Origin: Blasia pusilla
Lineage: Eukaryota
Direction of reading: 5' to 3'
NCBI GenBank assembly: GCA_050084515.1
Contig: CM114271.1
Location: forward strand, 36,456,001-36,520,000
Length of the DNA stretch: 64,000 bases
This document shows positions 1,211 through 64,000 of this stretch, piece by piece; the first letter of the stretch is position 1, and each line of letters starts with the position of its first letter. Below the pieces are notes generated by a model. That model was not told the DNA's origin. It saw only the letters and a list, made by a program, of their open reading frames with translations, and made no database searches. A program made the position numbers and the translations under genes.

Positions 1211-1260
1211 GAAGTGGTCAGATCAGAAGGAGAATCTATCTCCTCACATGAGTTGGTAGA

Positions 1261-6514: not shown

Positions 6515-6637
6515 GGGGGGGGAATGCCCCCTTCTTCCTTTTCTGGTCGTGTTGTGGCCTTCAGGTTTTGACTCTTTGAGTCCCCCTCTTTTGTACTTCC
6601 GATGGGTTTTCCATCACTCGTTTTTATCGAAGTGCAT
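6515..6637 (+). mobile_element. Severely 5'-truncated copy (3' UTR only) of the CRE-like element
   Basis: Matches 3238-3355 (TTTTGACTC.TTGAGTCCCCCTCTTTTGTACTTCCGATGG...CATCACTCGTTTTTATC...GTGCATC). Flanked by the imperfect direct repeat TTTGAG(AG)CTAG, a probable TSD. Confidence 0.75.
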
Positions 6638-7569: not shown

Positions 7570-8130
7570 CACTATTCCCCCAAATTTTTTCAGTTATGTG
7601 TATGCGTGTGGGAAAGGAAAAACACAACTGTTACACTACTCCCCCAAAATTCTTCAGCTATGTGTATGCCTATGGAAAAGGGAAAACACACTATTCCCCC
7701 AAAATTGTTCACTTATGTGAATGCCTATGGAAAAAGAAAAAAAGACATGATCCCCCCAAAATAGTTCGGTTATGTGTATGTCTATGGAAAAGGAAAAACA
7801 CACTATTCCCCCACAATTTTTCGGTTATGTGTATGTCTATGGAAAAAGAAAAAAGCCTTATTCCCCCAAAATAGTTAAGTTATGTGTATGTGTATGGGAA
7901 AGGACAAACACATTATCCCCCCATTTCTTCACTTATGTGTATGTCTATGGAAAAGGAAAAAAAAATTATTCCCCCAAAAATAGTTAAGTTAAGTGTATGC
8001 CTATGGAAAAGGAAAAACACACTATTCCCCGAAAATTGTTCAGTTATGTGTATGTCTATGGAAAAGGAAAAACACGCTTTTCCCCAAAATTGTTCGTTTA
8101 TGTGTATGCCTGTGGAAAAGGCAAAACACG
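7570..8130. repeat. Minisatellite, ~59-60-bp unit, about 9-10 copies
   Basis: The consensus is close to TTATGTGTATGTCTATGGAAAAGGAAAAACACACTATTCCCCCAAAATTGTTCAG, repeated head-to-tail. The repetitive ORFs here are by-products. Confidence 0.9.
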
Positions 8131-18215: not shown

Positions 18216-18694
18216 TGTCACATCTGAGTAGCCGATAGGCCGAGATCTATCGTGGATAGGGCGTAGGAGCCAGCGGACTATCTTGAGTGTAACTTTGTCC
18301 CACAGTGTCGGATGAGGTTGAGGATAGGTCCATTGTGTCAGGAACGTCGTTTTTTATGACTTTCATGTTGAGGTCTTTTACAACCGGGTGACTTGTTGAC
18401 CAGGTCACTGCCCTGGTAACTTTGTCTTGTATGAGTTACCAAGGGAAGGGCTATTTTTAGGGGAAGAGCCTTTTGGCTCTTCCCAACCTATATAAGAGAG
18501 GAAGATGGCTTTCCTAAGCCATCTTTCTCATGTTGGGCCGTTGGAGCACCTCCCTTGTATGTGTGTGAGCTAGGACTAGGGTGCTAGCGTCCGGATTCCT
18601 TGATAGCACAGGGTGGACGAGGCTCGATATGCCGATGTAGATTAAGGAGTGGAGTTTTAGGCCGGGTGTGCCCTTTTTACTACTCTTTATTTTT
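18216..18694 (+). repeat. Terminal repeat A1 (~479 bp), contains TATA box
   Basis: Near-identical to 27258-27734, with TATATAA at 18489-18495. It is not followed by a B repeat. Confidence 0.93.
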
Positions 18695-20039
18695 ACATGA
18701 GAAAGATGGCAGGGGGCTGGTGGGAATTCGTTGTTTGCAGGTAGGCAAGCGAGTTGCCTTGGTCCGGAGCCCCTGGAGACGTGTGTGTGACGTTGTGTGT
18801 CATTTTTTCTGTTCGGAAGGCCGTGGGCGGACGCGCTGTCCGTTTTTCTCAGATTTTGCTGGTGCGGATTGATGGGGGACAACAGCCGAGTGTAGCGTGT
18901 GGTGGGGCGTCGGGTGTACGCAAGTAAGGGTGTCGAGAGAGAAGGAAAGGGCAGGTTTGGGTCTTGCAGCCGCCGGGGGGCTGTCAAGTAAAGGCGGCTA
19001 GGTTAGGTCGCGAAAGCTAGAGTTAGGTCGCGGACGGCAGGGCGCGGACAGCAAGGCGCGGACGGCGCCTTCCCCCCCCTCTCTCTCCCCCGAGGTGGGA
19101 GGCGCGCATAGGTCGCGCCCCCAGCGCATTTAGGGCCCAAGGGGCCCGTGATAGGCCACGGTCCAAAGTTTCCCCCCCCCCCCTCCAACGTGGTAGGAGT
19201 GGATGCAGTTGTAGCGAACGCGGTGGGCATGGGCAATGTGAGGGCAGGGAGGATGTCGACGTGCTGAGTGATTGGCAAGCTGGACAACGGGCGTGACATG
19301 TTGTTTTTGGGGCGCGACAGGGCATTGCGAGAGTTTACGATGGAGGGGCAGTGTGCATAATGCCGACGGGTTGTCCGCATCTGTTGACGGGAGGATCGAC
19401 ATGTTGGTCGAGGGGAGTGTTATGTGGCGGAGATTGTCATATCATGTGGAGGAGTGCATATTGACGGTGCAGCAGGTTGGAGGGCGTGATCAGGTTATCC
19501 ATTCGAGTCCCTTTTCCCGCACTTGTCGTGTGTGATTGAGAGTGCTGGGTATCGGGTAGTAGCTGGTGCTAGATGGGTGCAGTGATGGTGACGAGTGTAG
19601 ATTCTTTTCATGTGTAGCATGTTGGTGGATATACGGCGGTTGCCGAGTAGGGGTCACGTGTATGACCCGAGAATGTGTCGCTAGGTTAGGTGAGTCAGTT
19701 GGGAGGCTCATGGTGAGCCCGAGTGTTGAGCGTGCGTGAGGTCGGGTATGTCATCACGGGATTGACGTTAGCATAGGTGAGCTAGTGAGGCGTGTGGGAG
19801 ACTCTCAGTGAGTCTGAGTGCTTGAGCGGGTGAGACAGGATTTGTCATCACGGCGTTCTTCTAGGGTTCGGAAGAACGGGGTAGTGCGAGCAGTGGTAGT
19901 GGTGTGACACGGAGTGGAGTGAGATACCGAGGGGTTACCAGTGAGGAGCTCCCTCGACATCCATCCGTGACTGGATCGTCATCACTGGACACTGGGTCTG
20001 GTGACGAGATCACCGAAAGAGACAGTAGTACTTGGCAGG

Positions 20040-21100
20040 AGATGGACGACATGGGCCATCGGGGCATCGTCATTTTCGGTGCAATGGGCACCATCGACTT
20101 AGATGATTTCATCCAGGAGTTCGACACATGGTGCGACTTCCAGGAGATACGGACCGACACGGTTCAACCCTTTCATGGCATGGAAGGGGTTGTTCCAAAG
20201 ATTTGGAGGGTCCTCCGATGGATGACTACATGGAGTTTCGATCACTATATTCAGTAGAGATCGATGACCTGGAGGATGTATCTTGGGCTCAGGGAATGTG
20301 TCCACTAGTGGTCGCGAGGCATATGATGGGATTGTGAGAGGAGAGAGACCCACACTATCAGCCCAGGAGACTAGATGGAGAGGAGGGCAAAGTGAGACAG
20401 GCGATATGGCGAGACCTCTCGGTGGTAGAGGGCCACCCACTTTAGCCCACACGGTGGAGTTCTTCCGGCAGTTGGGGAAGAGCTACCAGGGCGTGCATGC
20501 ACCGACAAGCTGAAGAGTCTCAGGATTTTCAGCGACGATCGGGTGAGAGTCGAGAGAGGCCTTCACACGCATGAGGAGGCTGATCATTGCTACGTTTGGA
20601 GTGATCGAGGCGCAGCCATCCAGATTGGTCTGGGTTCGGACCGAGAACTACGGAAGAGAGTCCGAGATGCGGTCTTGATTCACACAAATGGAAGCCCACA
20701 TTGAAGGTGATCTTTGAGTTGTCGAGCGTATTGAGCTCAACATGAGTGAGGAGCGGTAGTGACCGCTGGATTTTCTCGAGATACGACGGGTCCCAGCGGC
20801 GGTGACCCCACAAAGTGCCACCGAGCACCGATACCACGGAGCGGGCAAGTGTGCCTAGAGAGCAAGCGGGTACCGTGAGCCTATTAGGCAACGACCGCAC
20901 CTACATATGTTGCCTGCAGTGGACCGATGTGGTCTTGTTGGGCGTGTGGAGGGGCCCATAGGCAGAGAGGCGCCACAAGCATGGGGAGAGGATCACGGCG
21001 CCTCCAATTGCGCAGAGAGCCACGAGGATGGCCCCACCACAACACCTGTGTGACCATTGCCCAGATATGGTCACACTAGGGATAGATGTTTTGACCTTCG
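20040..21100 (+). pseudogene. gag-like region with CCHC zinc knuckle (frameshifted)
   Basis: DLDDFIQEFDTWCD near 20095, and C-D-H-C-x-RYG-H-TRDR-C at ~21049-21089 with a 1-nt frameshift. Confidence 0.65.
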
Positions 21101-22729
21101 CCGAGGGGCACGCCCGTCAGGTAGGCCGAGGGCCTGGGGCGGCCGCCCTGGAGGAGGTCGGGGAGTTCTTCTGGGCGTGGTGGTAGAGGACCACCACCAG
21201 CCAGAGGAGATGGAGCAAGAGCACCAGAGCTGGCGCTTCTCTCACGCATCGATCAGTTGGAGCAGAGGATTGTTGCCATGACGATGATGCGGCTTAGGGA
21301 AGGCACGGAGCTCGGCGACTAGTGTGACTCGGTCTCTACCTCTTACCCACGACCGGGTGAGGATCTCGCCAATATGGGATTCATGTGTAGTGCAGCCCAG
21401 GTTGAGGCAGTTGCAGGGGTGACTCGAGGTGCTGCGTGAGGCACCGAGCCATCGAGAGGTGGAGTTGAGATTGACCCACCAGAGGGGACCGATGGGCGGC
21501 AGCCAGGGTTCCCTGATCGTTCACATTGTCGGAGGCACTACACACACCATCGATGGTGCCTCGACAACCAGCGGTGCCTCTGATTCGAGGCACCTCGTCG
21601 GCGTCACGAGGAGTTGGAGTGACAACTCCTATGCCGGCTCGAGTGGAGTCGTGTCGACTATAGTGTTGGAGGTGGCCACTAGAGTGAGTCGACTCGCTAT
21701 TTTCCGCCTTAGAGTTGGCGGCGTTGGGAGTTGGACCGGTGAGGTGTTCGGTTGGGCGCCACGTTGTGTGAGCGTGGAGAGATGAGCGCTTCTTGTTCAG
21801 AGGTAGTTGAGGAGGTGGTGGACTTGCCCTCGAGCCGGTGCTTGGGGCGTTCCCCACGAGTCATGGCATCGCGCGGCGGCAAAGTTGGTAGATATGCCTT
21901 TCGACCGGCCATAGAGCGGCAAAGTGGTGACACTGGAGTAGTGTTCTTTGGATAATCGAGCTAGAGTATTTCGCTTGGTTAGTCGGAGGGGACAAGATAT
22001 ACCACCCAGTAGCGTCCCTACTTGATTCAGAGCGCAACCCTTGATGTTAGGGAAGGCGGCGTGTTTAGCATTGGGGTTCGGAAGGCCGACATTGAGCCTT
22101 GTCCCTTCCAAATACATACCTCGATTGGGGGCGTATCACCCACTCAGTATATGACTCGACAGGAGATTGTTGTGAGAGTCCAGCCAGAGCATGCGACGGA
22201 TAGTGCTATGGTGCGCACACGCGTGCGATTACGACACCCGGTGAGTTATGCGATGTGTTGGTGGGGAGTCTGATGTTATATCCCCTAGATTCATCCTTGA
22301 CCGGGAGGAGACCGTTGCTTATCGGCCAAGATGGCGGTCAGGTGACGGTCGGATGAGTCAGTTACCCGTGCAGTTTGCGGGACGAGGTGGTCGATCACGA
22401 GGCGAGTCTGTGACCACGTTGGCGGCTTTCACAAGTAGTGTTAGCTGGCCAGGAGAGTTGTTGGAGGGGAACGCACATGCGGAGGATGTCCTAGTAGCGG
22501 ATAGTCCCACGGAGAGACAGGCCATGGCGGGTGTCTCTTCCCATGTTAGCGATGCCTCTTCACCATTATGGGGTACGACTCGAGAGCTACAGAGGAGTGC
22601 CGACGACCTCGTGAGGCAGGCGTGGAGTCATGTTTTTATCCTAGAGCAGCGAGAGTCACGTGGCGATCGGGCTCTTGGAGTGGAGACGATGACCCCACTA
22701 GATACCACACATTGTGTGGCGGTGCCTGA

Positions 22730-23680
22730 AGGAGGGTGTTAGGGTGTTGGATCTCTTTGAGGGATTAGCACCGGATTGGCCGCCATATTGCGGCGGGCAT
22801 ACGGGTGCATCATACCTTTATGTGGAGAGAGATGAGACCCGCGCGGCGAGTATCATTACGCCACGTGGCGAGGTTGGTCCAGAGGTATCCGAGTTGTTGT
22901 CGGTATCTGCAGATGACGGGATACCAAAGATACGCTATCCGCCGACATATCTTTGGTGGGAGCGCAGATCTCGGATAGAGTTGGCACCATTCATTTGGTG
23001 ATTCTTTGGATCGCCATGTTAGGGTCATTCATCACTGGCCGAGGATTTGGATTACGGGATCCGAGGTCGGGATGTTTTGGGAGATCTTCGCGAGTAGTAC
23101 AACACTTGCGGGAGAGTCGATATGTTCTCCAAAGATACATTTTGGAGAACGTGCGTTGTTGGGAGATACTCGTGCACGTGTGATGACGAGTGTATATCGT
23201 GTGAGTCTGGTTGGGACCTTTGTGTTGTTAGATGCAGCGAGAGTTGGGTCACGTGCCCATCGCCCACGATCGTGGTGGACGAACCTAATACCATCGAGAG
23301 GTACCGAGTCAAGCCTACGTTGGAGTCAGAGAGCACCACATCTCACAATGGATGCTATTTTGGACTCGGGCGTCGATCTCGGTGGTGACACGCTGATGAT
23401 AGACCACCGTTGGCCACGGCCAATACGGGTGGGGGAGTTGAGGGCAGCCTTACCTCGTTGGTGAGCTTCCCAAAGCATCCCATGCCTTTTGTCGGGAGGG
23501 CGGGCATGATTTGGGATGAGGTGACCGGAGTATTGGAGGAGCCTCAGCAGATGATGAGCGAGCGAGCGCCATGGGGTTCACTACGGTACTACGGGCGGTG
23601 CCGAGGGATGATTGAGGCATCATGGAGACAGTGTTGGGGCGGCGATGGACCTCAAGCTGTCTCACATGGATAGTCACCTA
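22730..23680 (+). pseudogene. DNMT3-like cytosine-5 methyltransferase domain in retrotransposon copy 1
   Basis: Motif I VRVLDLFEG, motif IV GSPC*G (to 23022), motif VI YILENV, motif VIII DAARVGSRAHRPRSWWTNLIP, and motif IX/X remnants at 23535-23670. Several frameshifts. Confidence 0.85.
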
Positions 23681-24059
23681 GGTATGGCGGCAGAGACGGA
23701 TGCGAGTGTCATCCATCCGTCACGTCCACGAAGTTGGATCACGCCTCACGTGGTCTGAGGCATTGGTGGGGCGAGACAAGGAAAGATAGGCACCCATGGA
23801 CTTCTGGGGACGTCGTTCGAGCGAGAGAGTGCGGCGGCTAGAGTAGCACATGTTCATTTTTTGGATGTGGAGCATGGTGTAGGAGGTCGAGTGGAGTGGT
23901 CATTTGCGGAGGTGGCTAGGGGTTGCTATATAGCAACCAAAGCCGGAGGTTGCGTCCTCTCCGAGTGAGGTCACGATGGAGACTTGGGAGCTGTGATAGG
24001 TCTCAAGTTGATAGGAGAGAGAGACGGCAGCGAGTTCATAGGTTTCGAGAGGGCATGTC

Positions 24060-25420
24060 GGTTGTTTTGCCTTGAGATGAGAGACTTGGGTACGCTGTTG
24101 AAGGGTCCCGGGATACGGATTGAGTTGGCTAGTGATACGCCGATCTTTCCTCGACCCTACAGGTATTCTGATATGGAACGAGCCTTGATTTACAGCAGGA
24201 GTCAGGACTTGTTGGAGGGAGGACTTGTGGAGTTATCACATGGGGAATATGCATCCGCGCAGTCATGTCGGCAAAGAAAGGATATGTATGGCAATTGGAC
24301 GGATAGGCGGATGTGTGGAGATTACCGTCCTATCAAGCGATGACAAGGTCAGATCGGTATGCCATGCCTACTCTCGAGGAGATCTTTGATGCGGTAGGGC
24401 ATGCAAAGATCTTGATACTTTAGATCTCGTCTTTGGCTATCATCGCTTCCCTATCAGTTGGAGGACAGGAGAAGACAACGATTCAGGGGATAGATCGGTT
24501 CGGGAGAGATTGCTTGTATCGATGGCGGTTCTTACCATTTGGGTTGAAGAACGCGCTGCTGGAGTTTCAGAGTGATGGATAGGATTCTGGGTGGCTTGGA
24601 TTTTGTACAATGTTACATAGATGATATTCTTATCTTGATTCCACGGTTGAGGAGCATGAGCGACACTTGGAGGAGGTGTTTCGGCGATTGCGATTACATG
24701 GACTGAAGTTACATCCGGCAAGTGCACATTCTTTCAGGAGCAGATTGAGTACTTGGGACACACCATATACCCGAGTGGGTTAGGCGTTCAGTGACGAAGG
24801 TAGAGGCTATTGCAGATTCCACGCCCTCTGGATGTGAGTCGAGTCCGAGCATTTCTTGGACCGGCAAACTTCTATCGACGGTATGTCAAGGGTTTTAGTG
24901 CGATCGCAAAGTCTTTGACCTTGTTGATGAGACTTGATTAGGTGTGGTTGTGGGGAGATGATCAAGAGCGAGCATTTCAGAGTGAAGGACAAAGTTGACG
25001 TCCTCACCCATTTTACAAAGACCGTTAGGGTCGCCCATTCGATTACATACAGTTGGAGCATGTTGGGTCTAGGAGCAAGTGCTTACTCGGAGGGATGACA
25101 AGGAGAGGGAGTTTGTTGTGGCTTACGCGAGCGATCGAACAACATTGCAGAGGCAAAATGCACAGCTCCTACGAGGGAGAGTGCTTGGTGCGGTGTGGGC
25201 CGTGGCACATTTTAGGTGCTATTTATTCGGCAACCCTTTCACACTTATCACCGATCATCGGCCCGTTGAGGTGGTTGATGGAGTCCGACAAGCTTACGGA
25301 AAGCTTGCGGTGGGCTCTATTACTACAGGAGTATGAGTTTGAGGTGGTTCATAGGCCAGGTTGGCTGAACCAGGATGCGGATGGGTTGAGTCGTAACCCA
25401 TGTCCGAGTCAGAGAGACGT
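24060..25420 (+). pseudogene. Reverse transcriptase + RNase H of copy 1 (frameshifted)
   Basis: RPYRYSDMERALI, RMCGDYRPI, PFGLKN, CYIDDIL (~24612-24633), VVAYAS, SYEGEC, LITDH and DADGLSR. Confidence 0.9.
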
Positions 25421-25779
25421 CACGGGAGCTCGATGGCACGGAGAGAGTGATGAGGAGATGGTGTCTGGTTGGCATGCATCTGCCTATCTTTGTTGGTTGA
25501 CTATGGCAGGTCAGCCACAGATGATGACTCCAGTGGTGGGATTGGATGATGAGTCTTTGGATCCGGAGGTTGGTGAGGAGGCGACAGGTGATCGTGATAT
25601 CCATGACGACGTGGAGGTTGTGGAGTTCTTGCGCACTGGCGTCATTGCGAGCACAGTGAATGCTAGGGAGCGGGATCGGATCCTACAGAGAGCCAAGAGG
25701 TTCAGGTGGGAGGGGACTCACATTTTGCGGGTATGGGGAGATGGTAGGATACGAGTGGTACCTCATCCTTCCCAGCGAG

Positions 25780-27040
25780 CACGTGTAGTGCGACATGCCC
25801 ATGAGGAGTTGGGACATTTCGGAGTAAAGCGTACTTACAGCTTACTCCAGGTTCAATATTGGTGGGGCGGCATGCATACTGGGGTACAGCAGTTTGTGGC
25901 CAGATGTATGGTATGTGACAGAGTGCGAGCATCCTTCAATGCTCCCACTCCACGGTTACATCCTTTGCCGATTATGGGTTTAGGTTATCGGTGGAGTTTA
26001 GACTTTGCGGGACCTTTGCCATTGACAGGGCGTCATCATAGGTACGTGTTGGTCATGGTGGAGCATTTCTCCTTGTGGATAGAGTTGGTGGCACTACCAG
26101 ACAAGGCGAGCAAGGGAACAGCTTATGCGTTTCTAGATTGTGTGCTTAGTCACTTTGGTGCACCGGCGGAGGTGTTGACTGACCAGGGTACCGAGTTCAG
26201 GGGAGAGTTTTAGGCCTTGTGTGATCAGGCGCTGATATATCACCGCACCACGTCCAGGGATCATCCTAAGGCGGATGGATTGGCGGAGAGAGTGGTACAG
26301 ACGGTGAAGAGAGGATTGCGCAAGTATGGCTTGCAGCGGGGACAGTTGAGGGAGTGGGACCTACAGTTGCCATGGTTGGCTATGGGTTATTGCTTTAGTT
26401 GGGAGGCATCCTTGGCGTCATTTTCACCGTAAGTTTTGCTCTTTGGGAGAGAGCCAGATTTACCTGCAGCGATTCGACGTGACATGGCGGAGGTGTTAGA
26501 TCTTGATGATCCAGATGTGTGGGTGCAAGCATGTTCTCAGAGGGCAGAAGTTTTTTCGTAGAGTTATGCCTATGGCCTTTGAGAACTTAGCTATTGCCCA
26601 GCATAGAGATACATTGAGGTACGCGACCATTCGTGGAGGAGGTTATAGTCCAGGGATTAGGAGGTTTCATCCTGGAGATTACGTGTATTTACAGCAGGCG
26701 GCACTCACGACGCTAGATGTCACTGTAGGGCGCACGATCCTACGTGTGCGCGAGGTATTACCGACCGGAGTCCTCATGTTGGAGGGACGAGATGGTATGG
26801 TTTGGAAGGATCATGTGTGCAATTGTGCGCCATGTCATCTTCCGAACGTAGATGGGATGGTGGATCCGAGCTTGGTAGTGGTACCTGCAGGCTTGAGGTG
26901 TATGTTGTGCGGATTTGCGAGGGGTGCAGCCACCATGTTGGTATGTGATGGTTGTTCTCGAGGGTGGCATATGTCATGTCTGACCCCCCCCCTCTTGATG
27001 TGGTTCCCACGGAACCATGGATGTGTCCGAGATGTGTATA
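25780..27040 (+). pseudogene. DDE integrase followed by C-terminal PHD finger (copy 1)
   Basis: HHCC zinc domain (HEELGH...CMVC), core WSLDFAGP / VLTDQGTEF / GLAERVVQTVK, then PHD CMLC...LVCDGCSRGWHMSCLTPPL...WMCPRC. A few in-frame stops. Confidence 0.92.
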
Positions 27041-27106
27041 GGGTAGTAGGTCATGTTAGAGAGATGTGATATTTTCTATCTGGAGTTAGGAGGATCCAAC
27101 TGCCAG

Positions 27107-27117
27107 CTAGGGGGGCG
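27107..27117 (+). other. G-rich polypurine-tract-like motif immediately before B1
   Basis: CTAGGGGGGCG directly precedes B1. The same TAGGGGGGCG motif precedes B1 in copy 2 (59082-59091, -). Confidence 0.7.
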
Positions 27118-27255
27118 GTTGTGTGATCTCCATGTATATGTATGAGTTGATTTTTGTACATGTGTGGATCGACCCGTGTGTGGGGAAGATCGGTGTTGTG
27201 TGGTGTAGATGTGACAAGCGATGTATGTTGTGTAGCGATATGTATGCGCACGACA
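27118..27255 (+). repeat. Repeat B1 (138 bp)
   Basis: Three mismatches versus 27735-27872 by eye. Ends CACGACA and is followed by GT and then TGTCAC (start of A2). Confidence 0.93.
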
Positions 27256-27257
27256 GT

Positions 27258-27734
27258 TGTCACATCTGAGTAGCCGATAGGCCGAGATCTATCGTGGATA
27301 GGGCGTAGGAGCCAGCGGACTATCTTGAGTGTAACTTTGTCCCATAGTGTCGGATGAGGTTGAAGATAGGTCCATTGTGTCAGGAACGTTGTTTCTGACG
27401 ACTTTCATGTTGAGGTCTTTTGGCCTTGGTGACTTGTTGACCGGGTCACGCCCCTGGTAACTGTGTGCGCAGCAGTTACCAAGGGAAGGGCTATTTTTAG
27501 GGGAAGAGCCTTTTGGCTCTTCCCAACCTATATAAGAGAGGAAGATGGCTTTCCTAAGCCATCTTTCTCATGTTGGGCCGTTGGAGCACCTCCCTTGTAT
27601 GTGTGTGAGCTAGGACTAGGGTGCTAGCGTCCGGATTCCTTGATACCACAGGATGGACGAGGCTCGATATGCCGATGTAGATTGAGGAGTGGAGTTTTAG
27701 GCCGGGTGTGCCGCTTTTACTACTCTTTATTTTT
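27258..27734 (+). repeat. Repeat A2 (~477 bp)
   Basis: Copy of 18216-18694. Confidence 0.93.
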
Positions 27735-27872
27735 GTTGTGTGATCTCCATGTATATGTATGAGTTTATTTTTGTACATGTGTGGATCGACCCGTGTGTGG
27801 GGAAGATCAGTGTTGTGTGGTGTAGATGTGACGAGCGATGTATGTTGTGTAGCGATATGTATGCGCACGACA
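27735..27872 (+). repeat. Terminal repeat B2 (138 bp)
   Basis: Copy of 27118-27255; ends CACGACA immediately before TSD AGTG. Confidence 0.93.
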
Positions 27873-29587
27873 AGTGGTAACTCAAATCCAAAATGTACAC
27901 ACAACTCTTATATATCCTTACATCTCCAACTTATGAGTCCTACTTGTCTAGAAGGCATGTGCAAGGGGTTCAAGATTTTCGTTGCACCAATAAGATTATT
28001 GTCTCTAAATTGATCTTGCAAAGCTATACAAACACTCTCGGCATAACTCTTCTGGAACAATAGAGCAGCTTCTAAATCCTTGCCTGTGTGATCCCTAATC
28101 ATGTCTATAGTATGGAACTTCCTGCCTCTAATTTCATACTGTAAGCGTCTGAGATAGCCACCTGGAGGTCCAAAGTCCGGTAGAATGTGGTAACCTGTTA
28201 CCTGTATCCTTTGAAAAAGTAGATGCATTCAAGTCATGAGTTTCCATCACAAAATTAAGTAGCAGCAATCTCACAGCTAACAATGCTGCCAATTGTACTT
28301 ACATCAACAGATTTGTACTCGAATTTCGTGCTTAAGTTAGCCAACATAGAAAGAATATCAGCCAAGAAGTACAATTGATAAATCATACTGAACGATCTTA
28401 ACTTGTTATATAAGTTTACAACATTCCCATCATCTTTTGAAGGGAAAATGTCCCTAAAGTAAGTTAAAACAGATTCTAGTGAATCACACAAAGTGGATAT
28501 AGCTTGCCATCGTGACAACCATCGGATCTTATGATATCTTTTAATGACTCTTTAGGAGTCATTCATCTTCTCTTGTAGAGAAACTAGAACAACTTTTCGT
28601 TTACATGACCTCTTGAAATACCCTGCTACAGCATTGAGAATAGAATTTTCTTCTATGGAAATGGATTTGCAATTACTTGCTTTAGCAACTGTGAGAGCTA
28701 CAAGGTATGTCCTATGAGCAACACAATGCACTGAAAGAATGAAGGGATTTACCTTTTGCTTCAATTGTGAAGCCATCCCATCTTGGCTCCCTACCATTGA
28801 GAAGTCTCCATCTACCCGAAACCTACCATTCTAGAAAAGTCTAGCCCCCCATCTTTAAGTTACTTTAACAAACTATTAGGGATAGCATTAGAACACTTAG
28901 ACTCGCAGCGAAGCAATCCTAAAAAAAAACACTCTGCTTGACCATCTTCTATGAAGGTTGCAAAGGCTAGCAAATGCCGTGTAACAGATATGTCAATAGA
29001 TGCATCAATCATTATTCCAAAGAATGGTGACGCCTGAACCCTAGCAAGGGCCCTTTTGAGCAGAACTTGACTTATACAAAAACACATCGCATTGCAACTT
29101 TTCTCATCATGGTAAAGATCTTTAGTGATAGGTGCATTCAGGGAAAGCATCAGCTTACAAATACCGGTGAACTTCGAGAGAGGCATGGCCTCCTTCGCAA
29201 AAAAATATGCACACCTAAATAAAGCTACCTCACATGTTCGATTGGATGTAGCAATAGCCTTGGCCATGGAAATTTTTTGCCTCCATTAGCTACCCAAGCT
29301 AACTTGATATGCTCATTGGACTTTGCATGATCAATGAAGGTAGACACCTTACAATTAATGGCACCCTCCCTAGCAAAGACATTCTTGCCTTTGCCTTTTC
29401 TACAGATATTACAATTAATTCTTCCAATCAAAGAATCGAAGGTGATCCAATCATACATGATGTACCAAACATCCCTCCAGGCTTCTCGATTTTTCACAGC
29501 TATGGATACATTGCTTCCTAATGTACTCTCCTCTTCCTTCTCATCAGATGATCTTGACAAAGCTATGATCTCTGGTAAAGCCTTGGG

Positions 29588-30623
29588 TGTCACAGGCCTA
29601 CTCTCCTTGAACGTTAATCTTTGATATTGCGGAAGTATGCATTCAGAAGGTCACGCTCTCAACATTGATCTGCATCCAAACACACACTTTGGTTAGTTGG
29701 TTCTTGATCAATCAGCGGGCTAAATTTCTGAGTTCTCGTCTCAATCTCTCATCAAGCTTAACCTTCCTAGTTTCGCGGCTTACAACACAGGCAAGTCTCG
29801 AAAGACTTGGGCCAGACATTCAAGTCGGTTCAAGAACCTCAAACGGCATTCCGTGCCTGGCTATTCCAACTGTCCGATGGACATCCAATGAGTCCCTAGC
29901 CAAGACTCACACAAAATGGATCACGGGTCAAAATCCAAGTGTGGCGTACAAAGTCCACTCCCTTGGATTACGTTTGGGTTTCGAGTGTTTCGAGTTCCAA
30001 CGCCAAACTCCTGTTCCATCCCGTGCCCTTGAGACGTCGTTTGGTGCTTAAAGTGGGGTTCTTATTCCAAGACATCTTGGAGAGACTCCCCCTTACGAGT
30101 ACTTCTGGCGATCTCCGGGGTCCCCCTAACTTTAGGGAAAGACAGTCAGGCCCCTCAAATTGACCCTCAACCCGATTGCTCTCTCGGTCGTTTTCGGCCA
30201 ATATCTCAGCCTGTACTTAAGTGTTTGCTGAGATCTTTGGTGCGTTGGAAGCATCAAGAGATAAGCTTTCCAACAGCGCCTTATTTTTTTCAAACTCATG
30301 TTGGGGCTAAATGTTATGGTCCAAATCACAGTCAACTTCCCCAAACACTAGTCATGTTCCAAATTAGTTCTCATCTCTTTCGCAACCAACCTTCCAAGAC
30401 TCAACTCATCTCAAGTCTTGGTTCGCATTTGGTCTAGGTTTCCTGGTTGTGACCACTAATGCATGAAACACACAACCCTATTACGCGTTTCGTCTCTTGG
30501 AATTTTCCAAGAGACCTTCCAAAAGCCTCTCCAAAGCGCGATCATTGTAGTGTGAGTCCACTTGAGTTTTGATGTTCCGCTTGGCGCCTATTTGGTGTTC
30601 ATTTGGTTATGAGGGTCACGACA
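29588..30623. mobile_element. Solo LTR (~1036 bp) inserted in the 5' end of hAT copy 3 transposase
   Basis: Ends are TGTCAC...GTCACGACA with 5-bp flanks TTGGG / TTCGG (one mismatch). Removing it restores the frame EVP|KALPEIIAL, homologous to GPRNDVPDIIAL in copy 2. Confidence 0.8.
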
Positions 30624-55033: not shown

Positions 55034-58000
55034 GCCCAGCTTTAATTTACACTATGGTATTTTGCATCAAAGAAGCTACTTGAATTTAAGCCAACTGACC
55101 TTAGGGTTTAGGGCAGGTCCACCCCCCACTACAGGTAAGTGGGGAGGTCCTTTCTTTCGGGTGGGAGGTCCAAAATAGGTTCTTTTAAATATTCATGTAT
55201 TTTCTAACATGCCTTGTATTTCCACGGTAAATTATAATCTTTTGTAAGGTTTGGTAGAAGCTTTTACGGCAAAAGTAAATGGAAACTGGGAAAGGAGAAT
55301 TAGAGCATTTCATTCAAAATTCTAGTGGGATGAGCGATACTGCAATGTGTCCTACGACCGAGAAGATGTAAGAACCCTAGGGGGTGATAAAGATCACCCC
55401 GGGTAGAATCGCCCAGGTGAAGGTGTCATGCCCAGGACTAGCCCCGATTTCACTATGGAAGAAGATTTGCAAGGAGACTTATTGAAGAGTCCGGAACTAC
55501 TTTGGAAACGCAAACCCTCATATTTATGATCAAAAACTGGAAGGAAAAAGGTATAGCTGGGAATTTGGAGCTTCCCGGGAGTACCATATCGGGAAGCTGA
55601 GGAGCTACCCATTTCTGAATCGACAAAGCCCCGCTTGGCCAATTTCGAGTGCCCAAGAATCTCCGGATAGGGGGATCTTTGAAACCCCCTATTGTGGTGG
55701 TGGGGCACTCCTCTATTGAGTTTAACGGAGTTTTCCGGTCACCTTGGGGTCCCTCTCTCGGAAATAAATCTTGCTAGTATAGGGCCTTCGGGTGGAGATG
55801 CGATGAGAGTGAGAAATGAACCTAAAATTTTCCCATTGATATTTTCCATCATGGGACCTCCAGAATTCACCTAAATGTTCTTCATTTAGTACGGATAAGA
55901 AAATACATAGCTGATAAGAATTTTAGAATTTATATTTTTCTTTAATTATGTTATTCTTTTTTATCCATTTATTCTATTATGGAAGATTTATGTAGTATTA
56001 TATCCATCCATTCAATATTACTTCTCATGGATATAAAACACTGCATGAGTGTCACATGCTTTTGTTTTCAATGGTAAATTTTATTAATTTACAGATTTTT
56101 TACCTTTTCGCATGCAATTCTTTTCAAAATGTTAATTCCTTTCTTCAACCATTGAATTCTATTGTATCCATTTTCTGTCAAAAAAATTTATTTATCTTAT
56201 CATCCAAATTATTAACTCGTGCACTAAAGGTTTTTATTTTAGTCTAACTAATCTAATCATTAAGTCCCACGAATTTAAAAGAAGTTATCCTCCACACTAT
56301 TATTTGGTAGAGGTTGGGTGGTGGGAGGATAAGTTAAGCCACTAGATTGGATGTTCCTATGCATGTATGACACATTCAATGCTTTTATCTAACTGATAAT
56401 TTAAATAATATTTAATTTCATTAAATGAAACCTAAGAATAGAATAACAATGTGTCTCTAATAGAGTTTTATTGTTCTAATTTTAATGATAAAAAAAACAC
56501 CCATTTTTATAAAATTGGAGAGATATCTATCACCCCAGAAAACTATATGTGTATGAATGGAACATCCATTCCATAAGAAGTTTTTATGGCTTAACTTACT
56601 TTACTACCTAGATGTTTTCTTAACTAATTTTAGATCATTGCAATTGAATTAGCCTTAAAAGTAGGAGTAATCTTCCCAAATGTTTCAAGGAATTTAAGAT
56701 TAATGGTGCTAAACAGGAATACTTATCCACTTGTAGAAATTTTCTCTTCTTATTTTTCCCCATAGACCATAACTGGCTTAATACTTCACAAAAAAATTGA
56801 CAAATTATAATTATGAGGAATTTTTCTCATATCACTTTCTTAGTCTTTTCTCAATGTTTTACATCTCTATCTTTTTCATGATCATTTGTTCCCCAAAATT
56901 TTGTGACAAAGACATGATGCATACATATTATAAAGTTATGTATTCTTTTATCGCGAGATTCTAACAATGCCAAAGATGACAACTTGATATTGTAGATAAA
57001 AGAGAATTGTTCGAGGATCGCCTCTATTTGTGTGAATTAAACACTATGTTGAGTCTATATGATACATGACTAAGAAAATTTGACTACATGGTTAATGAAT
57101 AGTCATCCCAATCAAACAAAAAAAATTGGACTATATTACTTATCCTCCTCTATCAAAGTTGCATTGCACTATTAGTCATCCCCAACCACTCGACATTGAA
57201 TGCACGAAAGTGCACGCTCAGATTAAGGGTACGGTCCAAGGAGCGACATGCGTATGGGCAGGATGTGGGCGCGACATGGGCCTAGCCTAAGCAGGCCCAC
57301 TGCGGACTAGTTTGCACCCTAATGCATGCTTAATTTTGGCTTACAAGGGCTATGTGGGAGCAAGGAGGGCAGGGTGCGGCATGGTTGCAAAAAGGGGACA
57401 TGGACTCAAAAGTCTAGACATATCCACAAGCATGGATTGCAAGAGATGGGACCTATACTTATAGTTCATGATGGAAGGTAGGGCAAAGGCAAGTGGGGCA
57501 AATTCTCCTCGAGCAATTAGAGAGGAGGGAGGAAAAAACGAGAGAGTATGGAACAAGAAGACAAATGGGGGGGAATGATAAGGGGAAGATGGGGCCCACA
57601 TGGACAAGTCCTTCCACAAGACAGACATAAGTCCGCATACATGAACATATCCGCGAACTTGGAATTTTCCACATGCAACCTTGGGATGAGGGCTTAGACT
57701 CAAATTAGATTGGGAGGTTTTAGGCCAGGCGCCGATCCCCTAGGTATGGGTGCAGGCTTAAGCACAGGCCTCGTGTAGGTTGAGGCACAAGTAGGGGTGA
57801 GCTCTAGTTACGGATTGTTCTAGAGGCCAAGTGATTGGTACTTATGGATGGAGAGGAAAGGGGAAGATTAAATACTAGGGTGGTTTTATTAGAGAATAGG
57901 TTAATTGCAAATAAAGTTAGATGAAAAAGTTAGGTTAGTTGAAAAAGGATTGGGATAAGGACTGAGGAGAAAAATAAAGATTCGCTACATGCTTATTGGA

Positions 58001-61000
58001 GGTATTGGTTTAGGCATTAATAGTAAGTGGGGGTAGATGAGAAAAAAATTGCATGTGAATTCATTTCCTTCCATCCTCCCCTTTGTAAACTTGCTCATTT
58101 TTAGTATAATCTCACTCCTCTCTCCATATCACCCTCTCTCTACTCTTTTTTCTAAGTTTATTTCTCCATAGATAGATGAACTTGATAAGTAAGAATATGT
58201 TTTGTCACTACATAACCCTGATAATTTAAGGTATCTTGGTTATCTAGATTAGCATATTGATCTTTCATGTTCATAGTGGGTGTTCCAAGGTTCCTATTGG
58301 AGCATTCACAAACAATATATGGTGAAATTTGCATAAAATTTACAGCTTGATGTATCTAATTATTGAGCATGTAGGATTGTAGCAAATTACCCAAATGTTG
58401 TTTGGATGGGGTTAGTATCTACTTGTAGTCATGACCAAGCTAGAGAACTCCAACAGATCATGAAGGAACATTGGGAAGATGTACATATTGAAGACGAATG
58501 TCGTGCAAATCCACATCGTCATACAACATACATCGCTGACATACCATACTCACATACATACATAACATAGACGAGAGCATCCACAAACACAAGTGTACCA
58601 CAACTGAAATATGTGAAAGACCTACTATCATAAAACACATATAGAATCACATACAATCGAGCCAAACCCACTCCACGATGGGAGAATCCAGGTCGAAGCT
58701 TGCGGGAACCACCATAGCCAAGAGCTCTACTCACTACCAAGGCTAACTCCCAACGCAACAGGCTCAACTCAAAGAACTAACTCTTCTTTGAGTGCACTCC
58801 ACACTATATCCTCCAACCTAAGAGCGGGCCCTATTGGAAAAGTCACCCTCAATTGAGTAACCCCCAACCCTATGTATGAAACTGCATCTCTACCTAGACA
58901 CTACGACCCTACATAAGGTATGGCCTCTACTAGCACACTATACTCTACGACATAATCCGTATGGTCATGACAATTGTCGTGCGAATCCACATCGTCATAC
59001 AACATACATCGTTGGCATACCATACTCACATACATACATAAAAGAGACGAGAGCATCCACAAACACAAGTGTACCATAACTCGCCCCCCTAACTGCCGGT
59101 TAGGTCCCTCTAACTCCCAGGTAGCCCTATACATCTACTACATGCTATACACCTTTTTGGGTGCACGAATCACAAGGCCGGGTGCTAGGTTGCCCCATCG
59201 TTAGTCGCCTATCTGTAATCCATATCATGCAAAGATCAAGTCATCTACCTCTCTAAGTACATCGAGGACAAATCCACCTTCCAGTGGGAACAACATCCAT
59301 ATGTGGAGTCAAACACATCATGTGACAACCCCTAGAACACCGTTCACACACCAACAACATGACACCAACTGTTGCACCAATACTGACGAAGGAGTAAGCT
59401 CTACGTATGCTTTACCCCAAAATGTCCCAACTCCTCATGGGCATGTCACACAATGCGCTCTCTCTGAGCCAAATGCGGCACTACTCGTACTCTACCATCC
59501 TCCCACATACGGAGAATATGTGTTCCCTCCAATCGATACCTCTTAGCACGTTGAAGAACATGGTCTCGCTCCTTGGCACTCACTATGCCTGGCACCCTAC
59601 TGGTCCATAGGAACTCCAACACCAACGCATCATCATGAATATCACGTTGATCCGTATCACCATCTCCAACCTTAGGATCAAGGTTGGCCATCTACCCCTC
59701 GACTACAAGAAGATGTCATGTGGTCCTCCATACTAAAGTCCACCCTAACCAACATAAAAGGCGGATGCATGCCAACCTGGCACCATCTCCTCATCAACCT
59801 CGCCATGCCATCTAGCCCCGATTGCATCCTCTTGGCTAGTACATGGGTTCCTACTCAACCCATCAGCATCAAGGTTGGCAACTCCAGGTCTATGTACCAC
59901 CTGGAAGTCATACTCCTGTAAGATAAGAGCCCACCGTGCAAGCTTCCCTGTAAGCTTGTCATACTCCATCAACCACTTGAGCAGCTAATGATCAGTAACA
60001 AGGGTAAATTGTGTGCCAAACAAGTAACACCTAAAGTGTGCCACAGCCCACACTACTGCCAAGCACTCTCCCTCATATGAACTGTAGCGCGACTCCGCTG
60101 CATTATTCGAACGACTTGCATAGGCCACCACAAACTCCATGGGCTCATCATCATGTTGTGTCAACACCGCTCTAAGTCCCAACCTACTCCAATCAGTGTG
60201 TAACTTAAATGGATGCCCTCTGATAGGTCTCCTCAAGATAGGCGCCGCCACCAACTGGGCCTTGAGCTCCATAAAAGCTCTCTCTTGATCATCTCCTCAG
60301 TGCCACTCTTGATCTGATTTCAGCAATTGGTTCAAAGGCTTTGCCATAGCACTAAATCCCTTCACATACCTCCGATAGTAGTTCGCCAATCCCATGAATG
60401 CCCGAACTCTACTCACATCTATCGGACGCGGAATAAGTGCAATAGCCTCCACCTTTGCTTGCTGAACTCCCAAACCACCTGGATAGATCACATGACCCAA
60501 GTACTAAACATCCTCATGGAAGAACTTACACTTTCTTGGATGGAAACGTAGACCATGAGCTTTCAACCGCTCAAACACAATCTGCAAATGTATCTGATGC
60601 TCCTCCACCGTGTTACTAAACACCAGGATATCATCAATGTAACACCGAACAAATCCAACCCTGCTAGGATCCTGTCCATCATTCTCTAAAACTCGGCAGG
60701 TGCATTCTTCAACCCAAAGGGTAAGAATTTCCACTGGTACAAAAAATCCTTGCCATGAGAGTTGACACCCCAAAATGTTGTCTTGGCCTTGTCACTCTCC
60801 TGAATCGGCAATTGATGGTATCATGCCTGAAGATCCAAAGTATTGAAAATCTTTGCCTATCCCACCACATCAAAGATCTCCTCAGGTGTATGCATGGCAT
60901 ACCTATCGGCCTTGGTTTGCCGATTGATAGGACGGTAATCTCCACACATCCGCCTATCCGTGTAGTTTCCATGCATATCCTTTTTAGCAGGCATGACAGT

Positions 61001-61569
61001 GGCTGATGCATACTCTCCATGCGACAACTCCACTAATCCAGCCTCCAACAGGTCCAACGTCCTACTCTGAATCAGGTCCCTCTCCATATCACTATATCGG
61101 TAGGGACGACGGAAGATTGGCGTATCACTAGCCAAATCAATCCGTATACTGGGTCCAACCAAAGCACCCAACTCCTTCATGCTAAAGGCAAAACAACTCC
61201 TGTAAGCACGTAGGAACTATGTCAAGCGTCGTTTCTCACCTCCCGTAAGCTTGGGCCCAAGTAATGGCTCCCAAGTCTCCTCCATTGGCATACTAGAGGG
61301 AGAGGACGATGCCATTGGCTGCTACGCAACCCCCTCACAAGATGGTACACCCTTAGCTATACCATCATCTGAGCAAATAACTCCTCCACCAGCATGAGCA
61401 ACCAACTCCACATGCCCAGCCATTACATCCCATTTACTCCAAGGATGCAAAAAACTACTCTCCTTGCCCCCAGCCGATGCCTCTACCGTCCCGGTAGCCA
61501 TCGAGCTCATCACAAGGGGTGGAAGACCCACAGACATAGTCCAAAGTCGACGCTACTCGGCCATACCAA

Positions 61570-62521
61570 GACTCAAAATCCAAGTCAAACAATTCAGGTC
61601 CATGGCCTGACCCAACACATGACGTCGTGAAGCCTCAGAAATGGAAGCAACCGCTGTCACACCAATAGCAAATCCCATCACACGCTCTCTCTCATCAGCG
61701 TTAGGCTCCACCAACTTTCACACTTGAGAATCCCATACAAGCCCGGGACCATCTTCCTTGAAGGCATGTGACGAGGGAAAACTCACAAATGTGGGTAGTG
61801 CCATCCTAGGCTGGCCCACACGGTTCACCACTGCCATGGATGACCGATCAATAACCCTCACCACCTGATAAAGTCGCCCAGTATCCAAGATACTATCCAC
61901 TGTAAGGCAAGGATCCCGATGCACTACATCATATGCTCGACTTAGAACCTCCCTAGGCAACAACTTTGTCCACCACAAGCGTGGACGATGTGCACGCAAG
62001 CCAACTCGCACTGCATCCAACAACACCGTTGGTCCAATCCAAGACCGCACCTCATGAACACTCGCGATCATCCGGGTCCGAGTGTCACCCAACAATGGAA
62101 CATTCTCCAGAATGTAAGTAAGAGCATGTGCCTGATGAACCTAAAGATGTCGTAACACCCATAACATCTCCCAAAACAATCGAGACCTAGGGTTGTGTAA
62201 TCCCTCACCACGACCAGCACGTATATGACCCTAACATGGCCATCCAGCAATCACCAAATCCACAGGACCAACCCTCTCAAGGTTCGGCGCCCCCAACAAT
62301 GCAATGTGTGACGGCAAAGCACGCTGGTACCCACGAATAGCTGATGGCGGCAACAACTCAAGATATCTCCATATCCACTGACCAATATGTCGGGATGAGA
62401 CTCTCTGGGCCGTCTCATCTTGCTCCACATACACGTATCTCCGCACAGAAATACCGGCCTGCAACACTGTAGCCAAACCCGTGCTAATCCCACTAAAGAG
62501 ATCTAACACACAAATTCCCTC
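61570..62521 (-). pseudogene. DNMT3-like cytosine-5 methyltransferase domain in retrotransposon copy 2 (in frame with protease; only point stops)
   Basis: ICVLDLFSGISTGLATVLQAGISVRRYVYVE (I, II), GPVDLVIAGWPC*G (IV), RLFWEM, YILENV (VI), DAVRVGLRAHRPRLWWT (VIII), ERERVMGF...T (IX) and RRHVLGQAMD (X). Confidence 0.92.
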
Positions 62522-63988
62522 CGGCGGATACTGCCATACAATGGGTGTAGTATCCAAAGGGGATAACCCAACTGGACCAGAAGTAGGAGTCCTCCGTGGG
62601 GCCTCCTCTTCCTCGTGAGGTATAACAGCCTCACACCAAGCCTCCTGCACTAGGCGATCAGCCTCCTGTCGTAGTGCACCGCCTGAACTCCAAAGTGGCA
62701 CATCCAACGATGAGGATGCCACTGCTGCAAAACTAGGGACCTCCTCTACCTCCTCATGCACAGGAGAATCCATAGCAGAAAGATTACCCTCCAAAAAGTC
62801 TCCTGGCCAAGTGACTACTCCACTAAAACCAGCCACAGATGCTAACACCGTTGGGGAAGACCCTCCTAGTCGAGCCCCATAAATAAATCTCACAGGAACG
62901 TGGCTCATACGTCCATCCCTAGACTTCCAACCAGGTCTATAAGACGCTGTCTCAGTCCAGTAGTCCATCTGAAAACCCATAGGGTACAATATTGCTCCTC
63001 CAACTAGTACATCATACGACTCGGCTGATGTGACCACTACACCTGCTCCCAACCGGGAGCTATCAGTCGCATGATCTGGTCTCAACTGTACAAACAACTT
63101 CTCCCATGTCATGAATTGAGATCTATCATTGGCTCCTGCAAGTGATGTTTGAATCTGTAATGGGCAAGGCTCAAGCTCTGACCTCCGAATACCCAAACCA
63201 ATACATGCCGCCTTTCCCAACATCAAAGGTTGAGCACCAGAGTCTAACAAGACTCTATCTGGTCTATACACATGTCCTGTAGGACTCACCAATCGGAATA
63301 TCCCACTCCGATTGTCCAACATACATACACCAGGTATAAGCCTCTCACAATCAATGGCTGGTCGGACTGGTAATGCATCCATCTTTGCCGTTGCTGCGTG
63401 CCAAGTAGCACTGGTACTCAATACTACATCTGACATAGAGGGTCGCTCCACAGCAACACCCTCATCCACCTCAGCACGTGTAGCAGTAACACCCCCAAGT
63501 TCACACAACGTGGCTGCTAGCTGAAATATAGCAGCTAAGTCAACTCCTAAAGCCATCAGCTTCGTGGCCGAAAACAATGGGGATCCCAACACTGAAGTTT
63601 CCATCCGCAATACTGCACTGGATGCTGCATCCGTGTCTACTACACGCGATGTAGATGCCTCAGTCCCCATTGTCGGCTCAATAGGTTGCGTAGGAACCAT
63701 GGATGGAGTCCTAAGCATCTCAGACAACAAGAATGGCTGGGGAAGCCTAGCCTGCCTCCCAGCCTCACCCCTATGTGGGTCCAACTCCACAGTAGCACAA
63801 CGTGGCTCTGACGCTTGAGTGGCTCCTCTTGTAATTGCAGCTGATGCCTCAACCTGTGCTGCACTTGCCATATAAGAGAGATCATCCCCTCCATAAGAGG
63901 TGGAAGCCCCTGCTCCTGAACCTGATCTATGCTGGATACCAGCCATAGTAGCCACCTTCTGCTCCAACTGCTCAATCCTGGCAGCCAT
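62231..63988 (-). CDS. Open polyprotein segment: gag C-terminal linker, aspartic protease and N-half of DNMT domain
   Basis: 585-aa ORF with RVLLDSGAQP and YDVLVGG (retropepsin motifs), running without interruption into MTase motifs I-IV. Part of a probably defective element. Confidence 0.8.
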   Translation of the reverse strand: MAARIEQLEQKVATMAGIQHRSGSGAGASTSYGGDDLSYMASAAQVEASAAITRGATQASEPRCATVELDPHRGEAGRQARLPQPFLLSEMLRTPSMVPTQPIEPTMGTEASTSRVVDTDAASSAVLRMETSVLGSPLFSATKLMALGVDLAAIFQLAATLCELGGVTATRAEVDEGVAVERPSMSDVVLSTSATWHAATAKMDALPVRPAIDCERLIPGVCMLDNRSGIFRLVSPTGHVYRPDRVLLDSGAQPLMLGKAACIGLGIRRSELEPCPLQIQTSLAGANDRSQFMTWEKLFVQLRPDHATDSSRLGAGVVVTSAESYDVLVGGAILYPMGFQMDYWTETASYRPGWKSRDGRMSHVPVRFIYGARLGGSSPTVLASVAGFSGVVTWPGDFLEGNLSAMDSPVHEEVEEVPSFAAVASSSLDVPLWSSGGALRQEADRLVQEAWCEAVIPHEEEEAPRRTPTSGPVGLSPLDTTPIVWQYPPEGICVLDLFSGISTGLATVLQAGISVRRYVYVEQDETAQRVSSRHIGQWIWRYLELLPPSAIRGYQRALPSHIALLGAPNLERVGPVDLVIAGWPC

Positions 63989-64000
63989 AGTTGACTCTGT

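Follow-up and report, generated by a model that had tools for sequence, protein, structure and literature searches.

Retrotransposons that carry a DNA methyltransferase have been described from dinoflagellates and from the alga Klebsormidium nitens, as an earlier note on the DNA treated here correctly stated. In the text available, de Mendoza et al. (2018, Nat Commun 9:1341, PMC5890265) speak, for the algal element KnitGypsy-Dnmt3, of an 'independent acquisition ... in the K. nitens lineage', report a Ka/Ks (the ratio of non-synonymous to synonymous substitution rates) below 0.2, and propose methylation of the element's own complementary DNA (cDNA) for the DIRS elements. In the passages available from two later papers, a 2025 article in Molecular Biology and Evolution (PMC12344493) cites DNMT3 in 'streptophyte' retrotransposons, calling the families 'LTR Copia and DIRS' (LTR, long terminal repeat), and a 2026 preprint (10.64898/2026.05.21.726589) cites the same work as 'Gypsy-DNMT3' in 'streptophyte' retrotransposons. 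As far as these texts go, the sole plant-lineage example in print is that of one alga, with an enzyme not shown to work. Transposons are the usual targets of cytosine methylation, and a transposon that itself carries the enzyme presents a paradox. Here we analyse a 64,000-nucleotide stretch of Blasia pusilla contig CM114271.1 (positions 36,456,001 to 36,520,000; hereafter the window, with positions counted from its first letter), which contains the relics of two diverged members of one Ty3/Gypsy-type family, ordered gag, protease, DNMT3-type methyltransferase, reverse transcriptase (RT), RNase H, DDE integrase and PHD finger. We read these as relics of a Gypsy-DNMT3 family of the KnitGypsy-Dnmt3 kind, in whose live copies the domain would be a de novo C5 methyltransferase with the element's own cDNA as likeliest target, and we give this reading a probability of roughly 0.55.

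In the minus-strand element (copy 2; coordinates of all features are collected in Table 1), the methyltransferase domain extends from the first base of the motif-I segment (ICVLDLF) at 62515 to the last base of the motif-X segment at 61574, with no frameshift across 338 codons. Its motifs stand in the order I-IV-VI-VIII-IX-X, i.e. without the circular permutation that characterises DRM, and as a set they are far beyond chance. An open frame runs from the window end (64000) down to 62231 on the minus strand (589 codons, its 5' side cut by the window) and covers a D-S-G segment of the aspartic protease, followed by the beginning of the C5-methyltransferase domain, so that the span (61570-62521) and the common frame with the protease given in the earlier note were right, as was its recognition of the same domain at the same position of Pol in the plus-strand element (copy 1, 22695-23690). 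We assign the protease from the D-S-G motif together with homology to a relative, P0304, that is recognised by Pfam Asp_protease_2 over the stretch aligned with copy 2 (37% identity, E 4e-66); the copy 2 stretch itself gave no Pfam match even at E ≤ 1. What did not survive is the description of the domain as 'complete': that of copy 2 is broken by three internal stops with a further one just after it, and that of copy 1 is frameshifted with many stops. Apart from the stops, copy 2 deviates at a single position of at least 90% conservation, where Lys replaces Asn following motif VIII. Both copies are pseudogenes, incapable of any activity proposed below, and what follows concerns the family to which they belong.

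When single stop-free pieces were compared with Pfam, no methyltransferase match was obtained at E ≤ 0.01, a blank that would suit an accident of the locus, whether a host DNMT3 fragment adjoining a retrotransposon or lodged inside one, a chimeric assembly or motifs arisen by chance. Read through its stops with X, the copy 2 translation passes the PF00145 profile check suggested earlier, narrowly (23.7 bits against a cut-off of 22, E 3.8e-5), and relatives score 30-46 bits on the same profile; against the PDB, phmmer aligns query residues 16-320, the whole catalytic domain, with DNMT3A at E 6.3e-13. Arguing against an accident, the domain has the same frame and place, between protease and RT as previously claimed, in the two copies of the window, whose DNA identity is no more than 62-72% (a level so low that we assign them to different subfamilies); it has the same place in Marchantia and Sphagnum gene models; and 109 of 228 pattern matches in JGI (Joint Genome Institute) metagenome contigs were confirmed, with E-values among homologues reaching 1e-171. 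Homologues, gene models, shared place and confirmed metagenome stretches together refute the accident, to which we leave next to no probability.

The homologues themselves are numerous. A word-based search returned 174 proteins of similar length at E ≤ 1e-3 (with values down to 1e-171), those named including Calypogeia fissa, Marchantia polymorpha, M. paleacea, Riccia sorocarpa, Sphagnum troendelagicum and S. tenellum, together with 30 longer proteins at E ≤ 1e-10 that include 17 M. polymorpha gene models and Sphagnum fallax. The M. polymorpha protein Mp_4g09160, of 1278 residues, comprises gag, CCHC and protease parts together with an open DNMT domain that shares 72% identity with copy 2. With an exhaustive HMMER search, 1926 cluster representatives passed E ≤ 1e-3, of which 171 also passed E ≤ 1e-30, and many lie in proteins of 1000-3400 residues; 30 of these matches were checked by name and proved to be Scenedesmus sp. 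PABB004 'pol', Closterium NIES-53, -54, -65 and -68, and otherwise unnamed metagenome proteins. Neither a vascular plant nor Klebsormidium occurs among the named matches, which is no evidence of absence since most matches are nameless. The supposition that the lineage persists is borne out by the open-domain homologues in Marchantia, Calypogeia and Sphagnum records and by RNA reads from paralogues (see below), and in one DNA run 154,191 contig pieces match the stretch, a figure that marks it as repeated and is not a copy number.

The kinship of the domain was assessed by sequence, by profile and by fold. With copy 2 as the phmmer query against the PDB, DNMT3A/B score 6e-13 to 1e-12, DRM 3e-5 and M.HaeIII 0.21. 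A profile built from 11 relatives and searched against all solved chains ranks DNMT3A first (2e-19), followed by DNMT3C (6e-17), DNMT3B (2e-16), DRM (7e-12 to 2e-8), M.HaeIII (6e-6), M.HhaI (1e-5), DNMT2 (1e-4) and DNMT1 (0.5). For P0002, a stop-free relative with 77% identity to copy 2, the AlphaFold model has a mean predicted local distance difference test score (pLDDT) of 91.3 and a predicted template modelling (TM) score (pTM) of 0.89, and in Foldseek its top matches are DNMT3A, 3B and 3C chains (E about 1e-19, TM by target 0.80-0.85, 20-23% identity). Judged from these comparisons, the nearest kin of the domain is DNMT3, ahead of DRM, DNMT1, DNMT2 and bacterial enzymes, in line with the earlier assignment to a non-permuted, DNMT3-like type unlike DRM. 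Host DNMT3A, 3B and 3C (solved structures such as 6f57, 6w89 and 8tci), the best matches in both sequence and structure, share its catalytic-domain fold and motif order; they differ in that identity is just 20-23%, and in that the element domain lacks an N-terminal PWWP or ADD part and has protease and RT as its neighbours instead, with the only zinc finger a PHD at the far end of Pol. In the phmmer alignment the element domain is also about 45 residues longer than DNMT3A between motifs VIII and IX. Plant DRM1/DRM2 (4onj, 7l4c) belong to the same DNMT3-related superfamily, and the N-terminal half of the element domain aligns with them (query 12-137); DRM is, however, circularly permuted, only partly alignable and of far lower score (3e-5 vs 6e-13 for the single sequence, 7e-12 vs 2e-19 for the profile).

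Catalytic residues were counted over 146 distinct full family domains. The motif IV Cys is kept in 140 of these, the Glu and Asn of ENV in 145 and 139, the two Arg of motif VIII in 141 and 140, and the Gly of motif I in 145. Selection was examined by Nei-Gojobori estimates of dN/dS, for which 80 loci were fetched from the metagenome contigs. Copy 2 gives 0.24 against locus L005 and 0.21 against L012, and the stop-free pairs L005/L054 and L012/L054 give 0.15 and 0.16. Over 818 pairs the median is 0.55; by depth, the value is 0.24 at dS 0.4-0.8 (37 pairs) and 0.16 at dS > 1.5 (39 pairs). Compared with 10 loci, copy 2 has a dN/dS of 0.20-0.36 in the DNMT domain, 0.22-0.34 in the protease, 0.41-0.51 at the gag end and 0.35-0.48 in the linker that follows the DNMT domain, and an eleventh locus, L054, gives 0.08 for the DNMT domain with dS saturated. 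Copy 1 was too frameshifted for dN/dS against copy 2, and differences were instead counted by codon position (first 36%, second 27%, third 51%). We conclude that the DNMT domain has, by these estimates, been under purifying selection equal to that on the protease. The three weaknesses for which the earlier note had advised looking, i.e. absence of the domain from most family copies, neutral dN/dS and loss of catalytic residues, did not appear: all related loci that were fetched contain the domain, deep comparisons give a dN/dS well below unity, and Cys and Glu are all but invariant in the counts just given.

The residue preceding the catalytic Cys is Pro in 77 of the 146 domains and Glu instead in 56, and this substitution would be consistent with the domain having been retained as a non-catalytic module, i.e. 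a binder of DNA or S-adenosylmethionine or a spacer within the polyprotein, with no methyl transfer. The Klebsormidium domain, expressed in yeast, likewise gave no de novo methylation, a result that, in the text available, its authors judged inconclusive because human DNMT3B failed the same assay (PMC5890265). Retention of such a module is difficult to reconcile with the preservation of residues needed for catalysis only (motif IV Cys, Glu of ENV and the Arg-x-Arg of motif VIII), kept in 140-145 of the 146 domains, or with a dN/dS equal to that of the protease, and we consider it quite unlikely.

One of the metagenome loci merits separate description. L054 has, at 321-6809, a gag-Pol frame of 2,163 codons with only two in-frame stops, one at 3192-3194, shortly ahead of the DNMT domain (3222-4232), and one at 4509-4511, a short way beyond it; these could reflect chance decay or programmed read-through.

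The remainder of the coding region is of Ty3/Gypsy type, with the Pol order protease, RT, RNase H, integrase and a DDE (rve) integrase; Integrase_H2C2 and rve were found where a DIRS-type element would have a tyrosine recombinase. Copy 1 preserves the full order, i.e. gag, a protease remnant, DNMT, RT, RNase H, integrase (Integrase_H2C2 + rve) and PHD finger, and has split a hAT-like element into two halves, at 17592-18154 and 27898-29575, that correspond to an uninterrupted copy at 12559-14888. Copy 2 has frame changes in RT and RNase H and is without the integrase core and PHD finger, its likeness to copy 1 ending at 59375; its 5' side runs off the window and its 3' end lies at about 58493.

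The ends of the elements are unusual. Instead of two identical LTRs, copy 1 and the unrelated metagenome locus L069 have split repeats in the arrangement A1 ... B1-A2-B2 (in L069, A at 6141-6477 and 14894-15230, B at 14775-14889 and 15230-15344). The termini of L069 are TGTCA...TGACA with a 4-bp duplication CATA, and TG...CA termini with a 4-bp target duplication are present in 2 of 2 complete elements examined (copy 1 and L069). A polypurine tract precedes the 3' repeats in copy 1, copy 2, L069 and L012. The internal B1|A2 junction reads '...GACA + 2 nt + TGTCA...', i.e. as the 3' end of the element joined to its 5' end, in copy 1, copy 2 and L012 (14875-14900), and less cleanly in L069.

No RNA run is indexed as containing the stretch itself, and three RNA runs sharing the species label of the best-matching DNA run were mapped to 57000-64000 at a likeness of at least 85%. 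Depth on the dominant strand is 20-225 over 58638-64000, 6-10 over 58404-58637 and about 0 over 57000-58400, and first mates lie on the plus strand by more than 10:1 in the three runs. Few reads are at least 99% alike to the window (19 of 3739, 11 of 3860 and 8 of 4009), and for this reason we attribute the RNA to paralogues and not to copy 2 itself; the family is transcribed, with strong strand bias, in the sampled organism. Within repeat A2, some reads (4, 10 and 5 in the three runs) jump back by 289 bases, over 58651-58939, and may derive from a tandem or circular form in paralogues.

Two further observations bear on the decay of the copies. A stop occupies the same codon after the catalytic Cys in both diverged copies, and differences between RNA reads and copy 2 are most often transitions with T or A in the window (T>C at 89-93 places, A>G at 65-70). 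The shared stop codon and the excess of transitions fit decay by cytosine deamination. In base composition, G exceeds C on the sense strand of each copy, unlike the remaining window, with a plus-strand GC skew of +0.19 to +0.27 over copy 1 (18000-28000) and of -0.22 to -0.26 over the minus-strand copy 2 (58000-64000).

Our preferred reading can now be stated as a sequence of steps. In live copies the domain, either released from the polyprotein or acting within it, would serve as a de novo C5 methyltransferase; it would most probably act on double-stranded cDNA of the element itself, either ahead of integration or as it takes place; new insertions would as a result arrive already methylated; and recognition of chromatin at the target may be contributed by the PHD finger. 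Several points weigh against this scheme. The yeast experiment described above is one, and no Gypsy-DNMT3 has shown activity. As substrate, cDNA, flanking host DNA and RNA would fit the sequence data equally well. The designation 'DNMT3-derived' follows from a ranking against solved structures, and the window elements are likened to KnitGypsy-Dnmt3 by described domains and repeat layout. The strand bias means RNA from the minus strand, i.e. the sense of copy 2, by the usual stranded-library convention, and depends upon that convention. Most copies are dead, with a full single-frame domain in 40 of the 80 metagenome loci and only three of those 40 stop-free (L005, L012 and L054), and near-identical pairs (45, dS < 0.1) have a dN/dS of 0.86, as expected of post-insertion decay. 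A dN/dS that falls with depth is what constrained live lineages, with their inserted copies left to decay freely, would be expected to produce.

An active enzyme might also have another target, namely host DNA around the integration site or elsewhere, or RNA, and so serve target choice, the damping of host responses or a gene-like CG marking after insertion. The C-terminal PHD finger points this way, since its best solved relatives in copy 1 are the histone H3-tail readers DPF3, DPF2, KDM5A/B, AIRE and UHRF1 (E 3e-6 to 1e-3), suggestive of contact with chromatin rather than naked cDNA, and RNA methylation is raised by de Mendoza et al. for a LINE-borne enzyme (LINE, long interspersed nuclear element) in the text available (PMC5890265). 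For RNA in particular, the fold and motifs are those of the DNMT3 DNA enzymes and not of the tRNA enzyme DNMT2 (2e-19 vs 1e-4). We regard a target other than cDNA as rather unlikely, whilst taking it seriously, and retain methylation of the element's own cDNA as the preferred account.

The placement of the domain within Pol varies across the family. BLAST probes for RT, RNase H, integrase and PHD, applied to the stored domain-bearing proteins, found the domain alone in 213 proteins, before RT or RNase H (as in the window) in 17, after RT or RNase H and before integrase in 62, and directly before integrase in 16; one protein has DNMT followed by PHD only. The full order RT-RNase H-DNMT-integrase-PHD occurs in 36 proteins with placements other than that of the window. 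In an unrooted FastTree tree of the 146 distinct full domains, all family members, one branch (Shimodaira-Hasegawa-like support 94) unites 85 rows, with the domain after RNase H in 56, before integrase in 12 and in an unknown placement in 17; in none of them does it precede RT. The Scenedesmus proteins are within this branch. All 10 domain-before-RT rows lie outside the branch, and copy 2 falls in a 19-row set with Marchantia, Calypogeia, Sphagnum fallax and unnamed proteins. On the tree and the probe results, a second and larger lineage is recognisable (for example P0132, P0144 and P0191, Scenedesmus sp. PABB004 'pol') that holds the domain between RNase H and integrase and mostly ends in a PHD finger. 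Put together, the observations would describe Gypsy-DNMT3 not as a peculiarity of Klebsormidium but as an old clade of the green lineage, still transcribed in bryophytes, with an active de novo methyltransferase, two lineages distinguished by placement in Pol, and DIRS-like split repeats (with a junction like joined element ends) combined with a DDE integrase, a combination that points to an unusual replication cycle. We offer this composite picture tentatively, and taken as a whole it is doubtful.

Table 1. Positions of the features of the two Gypsy-DNMT3 elements, numbered from the first letter of the window.
Feature	Position	Strand	Remarks
Copy 2 DNMT3-like C5-cytosine methyltransferase domain	61574..62515	-	motifs I to X, single frame
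Copy 2 motif I, DLFSGIS	62503-62483	-	
Copy 2 motif IV, GWPC	62245-62234	-	
Copy 2 motif VI, ENV	62107-62099	-	
Copy 2 motif VIII, RAHRPR	61996-61979	-	
Copy 2 motif IX, ERERVMGF	61693-61670	-	
Copy 2 motif X, LGQAMD	61615-61598	-	
Copy 2 in-frame stop 1	62231..62233	-	codon right after motif IV catalytic Cys; copy 1 stop at matching codon (near 22990)
Copy 2 in-frame stop 2	62141..62143	-	within domain
Copy 2 in-frame stop 3	61718..61720	-	within domain
Copy 2 in-frame stop just past domain	61553..61555	-	all mapped RNA reads differ from window copy at 61555
Copy 2 aspartic protease segment	62999..63262	-	D-S-G at 63244-63236; same open frame as start of DNMT domain
Copy 2 reverse transcriptase	60516..61273	-	frame change near 60650; single-base difference from transcripts at 60650
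Copy 2 RNase H	60000..60293	-	
Copy 2 linker before integrase	59375..59691	-	
Copy 2 3' end	58493..59094	-	polypurine tract 59094-59082, B1 59081-58969, A2 58968-58606, B2 58605-58493
Copy 1 whole element, 9,657 bp	18216..27872	+	termini TGTCA...CGACA; 4-bp duplication AGTG at 18212-18215 and 27873-27876
Copy 1 repeat A1	18216..18694	+	94% identical to A2
Copy 1 DNMT remnant	22695..23690	+	all motifs recognisable; three frames, many stops, at least three frame changes needed
Copy 1 RT and RNase H remnants	24029..25310	+	
Copy 1 integrase	25767..26201	+	H2C2 zinc-binding domain and rve core
Copy 1 C-terminal PHD finger	26899..26994	+	after integrase
Copy 1 polypurine tract	27105-27115	+	
Copy 1 repeat B1	27118-27255	+	98% identical to B2
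Copy 1 repeat A2	27258-27734	+	2-nt spacer between B1 and A2
Copy 1 repeat B2	27735-27872	+	

Elsewhere in the window, an intronless frame of 632 codons at 9334-11232 on the plus strand combines a hevein-type chitin-binding module with a kinase of the receptor-like kinase type, and its product is possibly a receptor kinase that senses chitin. The closest relative, at 43% identity and 82% coverage, is a protein of Marchantia paleacea in which both modules recur, and the remaining named matches are all land-plant receptor kinases. They point to a land plant, probably a bryophyte, in agreement with the land-plant genome that the earlier note took this to be. Copies of hAT-like elements, with zf-C17orf113 and DUF4371 frames, lie at 12559-14888, at 17592-18154 and 27898-29650 (split by copy 1) and at 511-1272 on the minus strand, and a tandem array of about 10 copies of a roughly 55-nt unit, at 62-84% identity, occupies 7570-8144.

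Should the composite picture of an old, still active clade hold, part of the methylation on new liverwort and moss insertions, and perhaps on neighbouring host DNA, would come from the transposon and not from host DNMT3, DRM or CMT. In bryophytes, with the genetically tractable Marchantia polymorpha among them, the family is abundant and transcribed. Open-domain gene models exist for M. polymorpha, so that whether the element methylates its own cDNA, in which sequence context and with what effect on its silencing becomes directly testable. For annotation, the elements carry a warning, in that counts of bryophyte 'DNMT3' genes can be inflated by them.

In the literature searched, with subscription journals and supplements outside its scope, no report of such elements in liverworts or mosses was found; the kind itself is already published, and with later papers mentioning 'streptophyte Gypsy-DNMT3' in the passages available, the novelty first claimed for the locus was overstated. 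KnitGypsy-Dnmt3, as far as the available text describes it, resembles the window elements in having a non-permuted DNMT3-type domain inside the Gypsy Pol open reading frame and DIRS-like A-coding-B-A-B repeats (Fig. 4c legend, PMC5890265) together with Gypsy domains, and resembles their family in showing purifying selection on the domain and genomic copies that are mostly silent or dead. It is because of the shared oddity of the split repeats, besides the domain itself, that we file the window elements with it. The two differ in that the host of KnitGypsy-Dnmt3 is an alga and its acquisition is framed as specific to K. nitens, whereas that of the window elements is a land plant, and in that the Pol of copy 1 ends in a PHD finger, of which the main text of PMC5890265 makes no mention. 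SymbioDIRS-Dnmt3 of Symbiodinium, an element of DIRS/Ngaro/PAT type, has A-coding-B-A-B repeats and a DNMT3-type domain in Pol as here, according to the text available; such elements use a tyrosine recombinase, however, whereas the window family has a DDE integrase (rve), TG...CA termini and 4-bp duplications. Chromoviruses, i.e. Ty3/Gypsy elements with a chromodomain after the integrase, are like the window family in placing a chromatin-reader module at the C-terminal end of the integrase, which in the present case is a PHD finger and not a chromodomain. Beyond the published kind, the land-plant host, the constraint on the domain, the transcription, the PHD finger and the second placement within Pol are modest additions.

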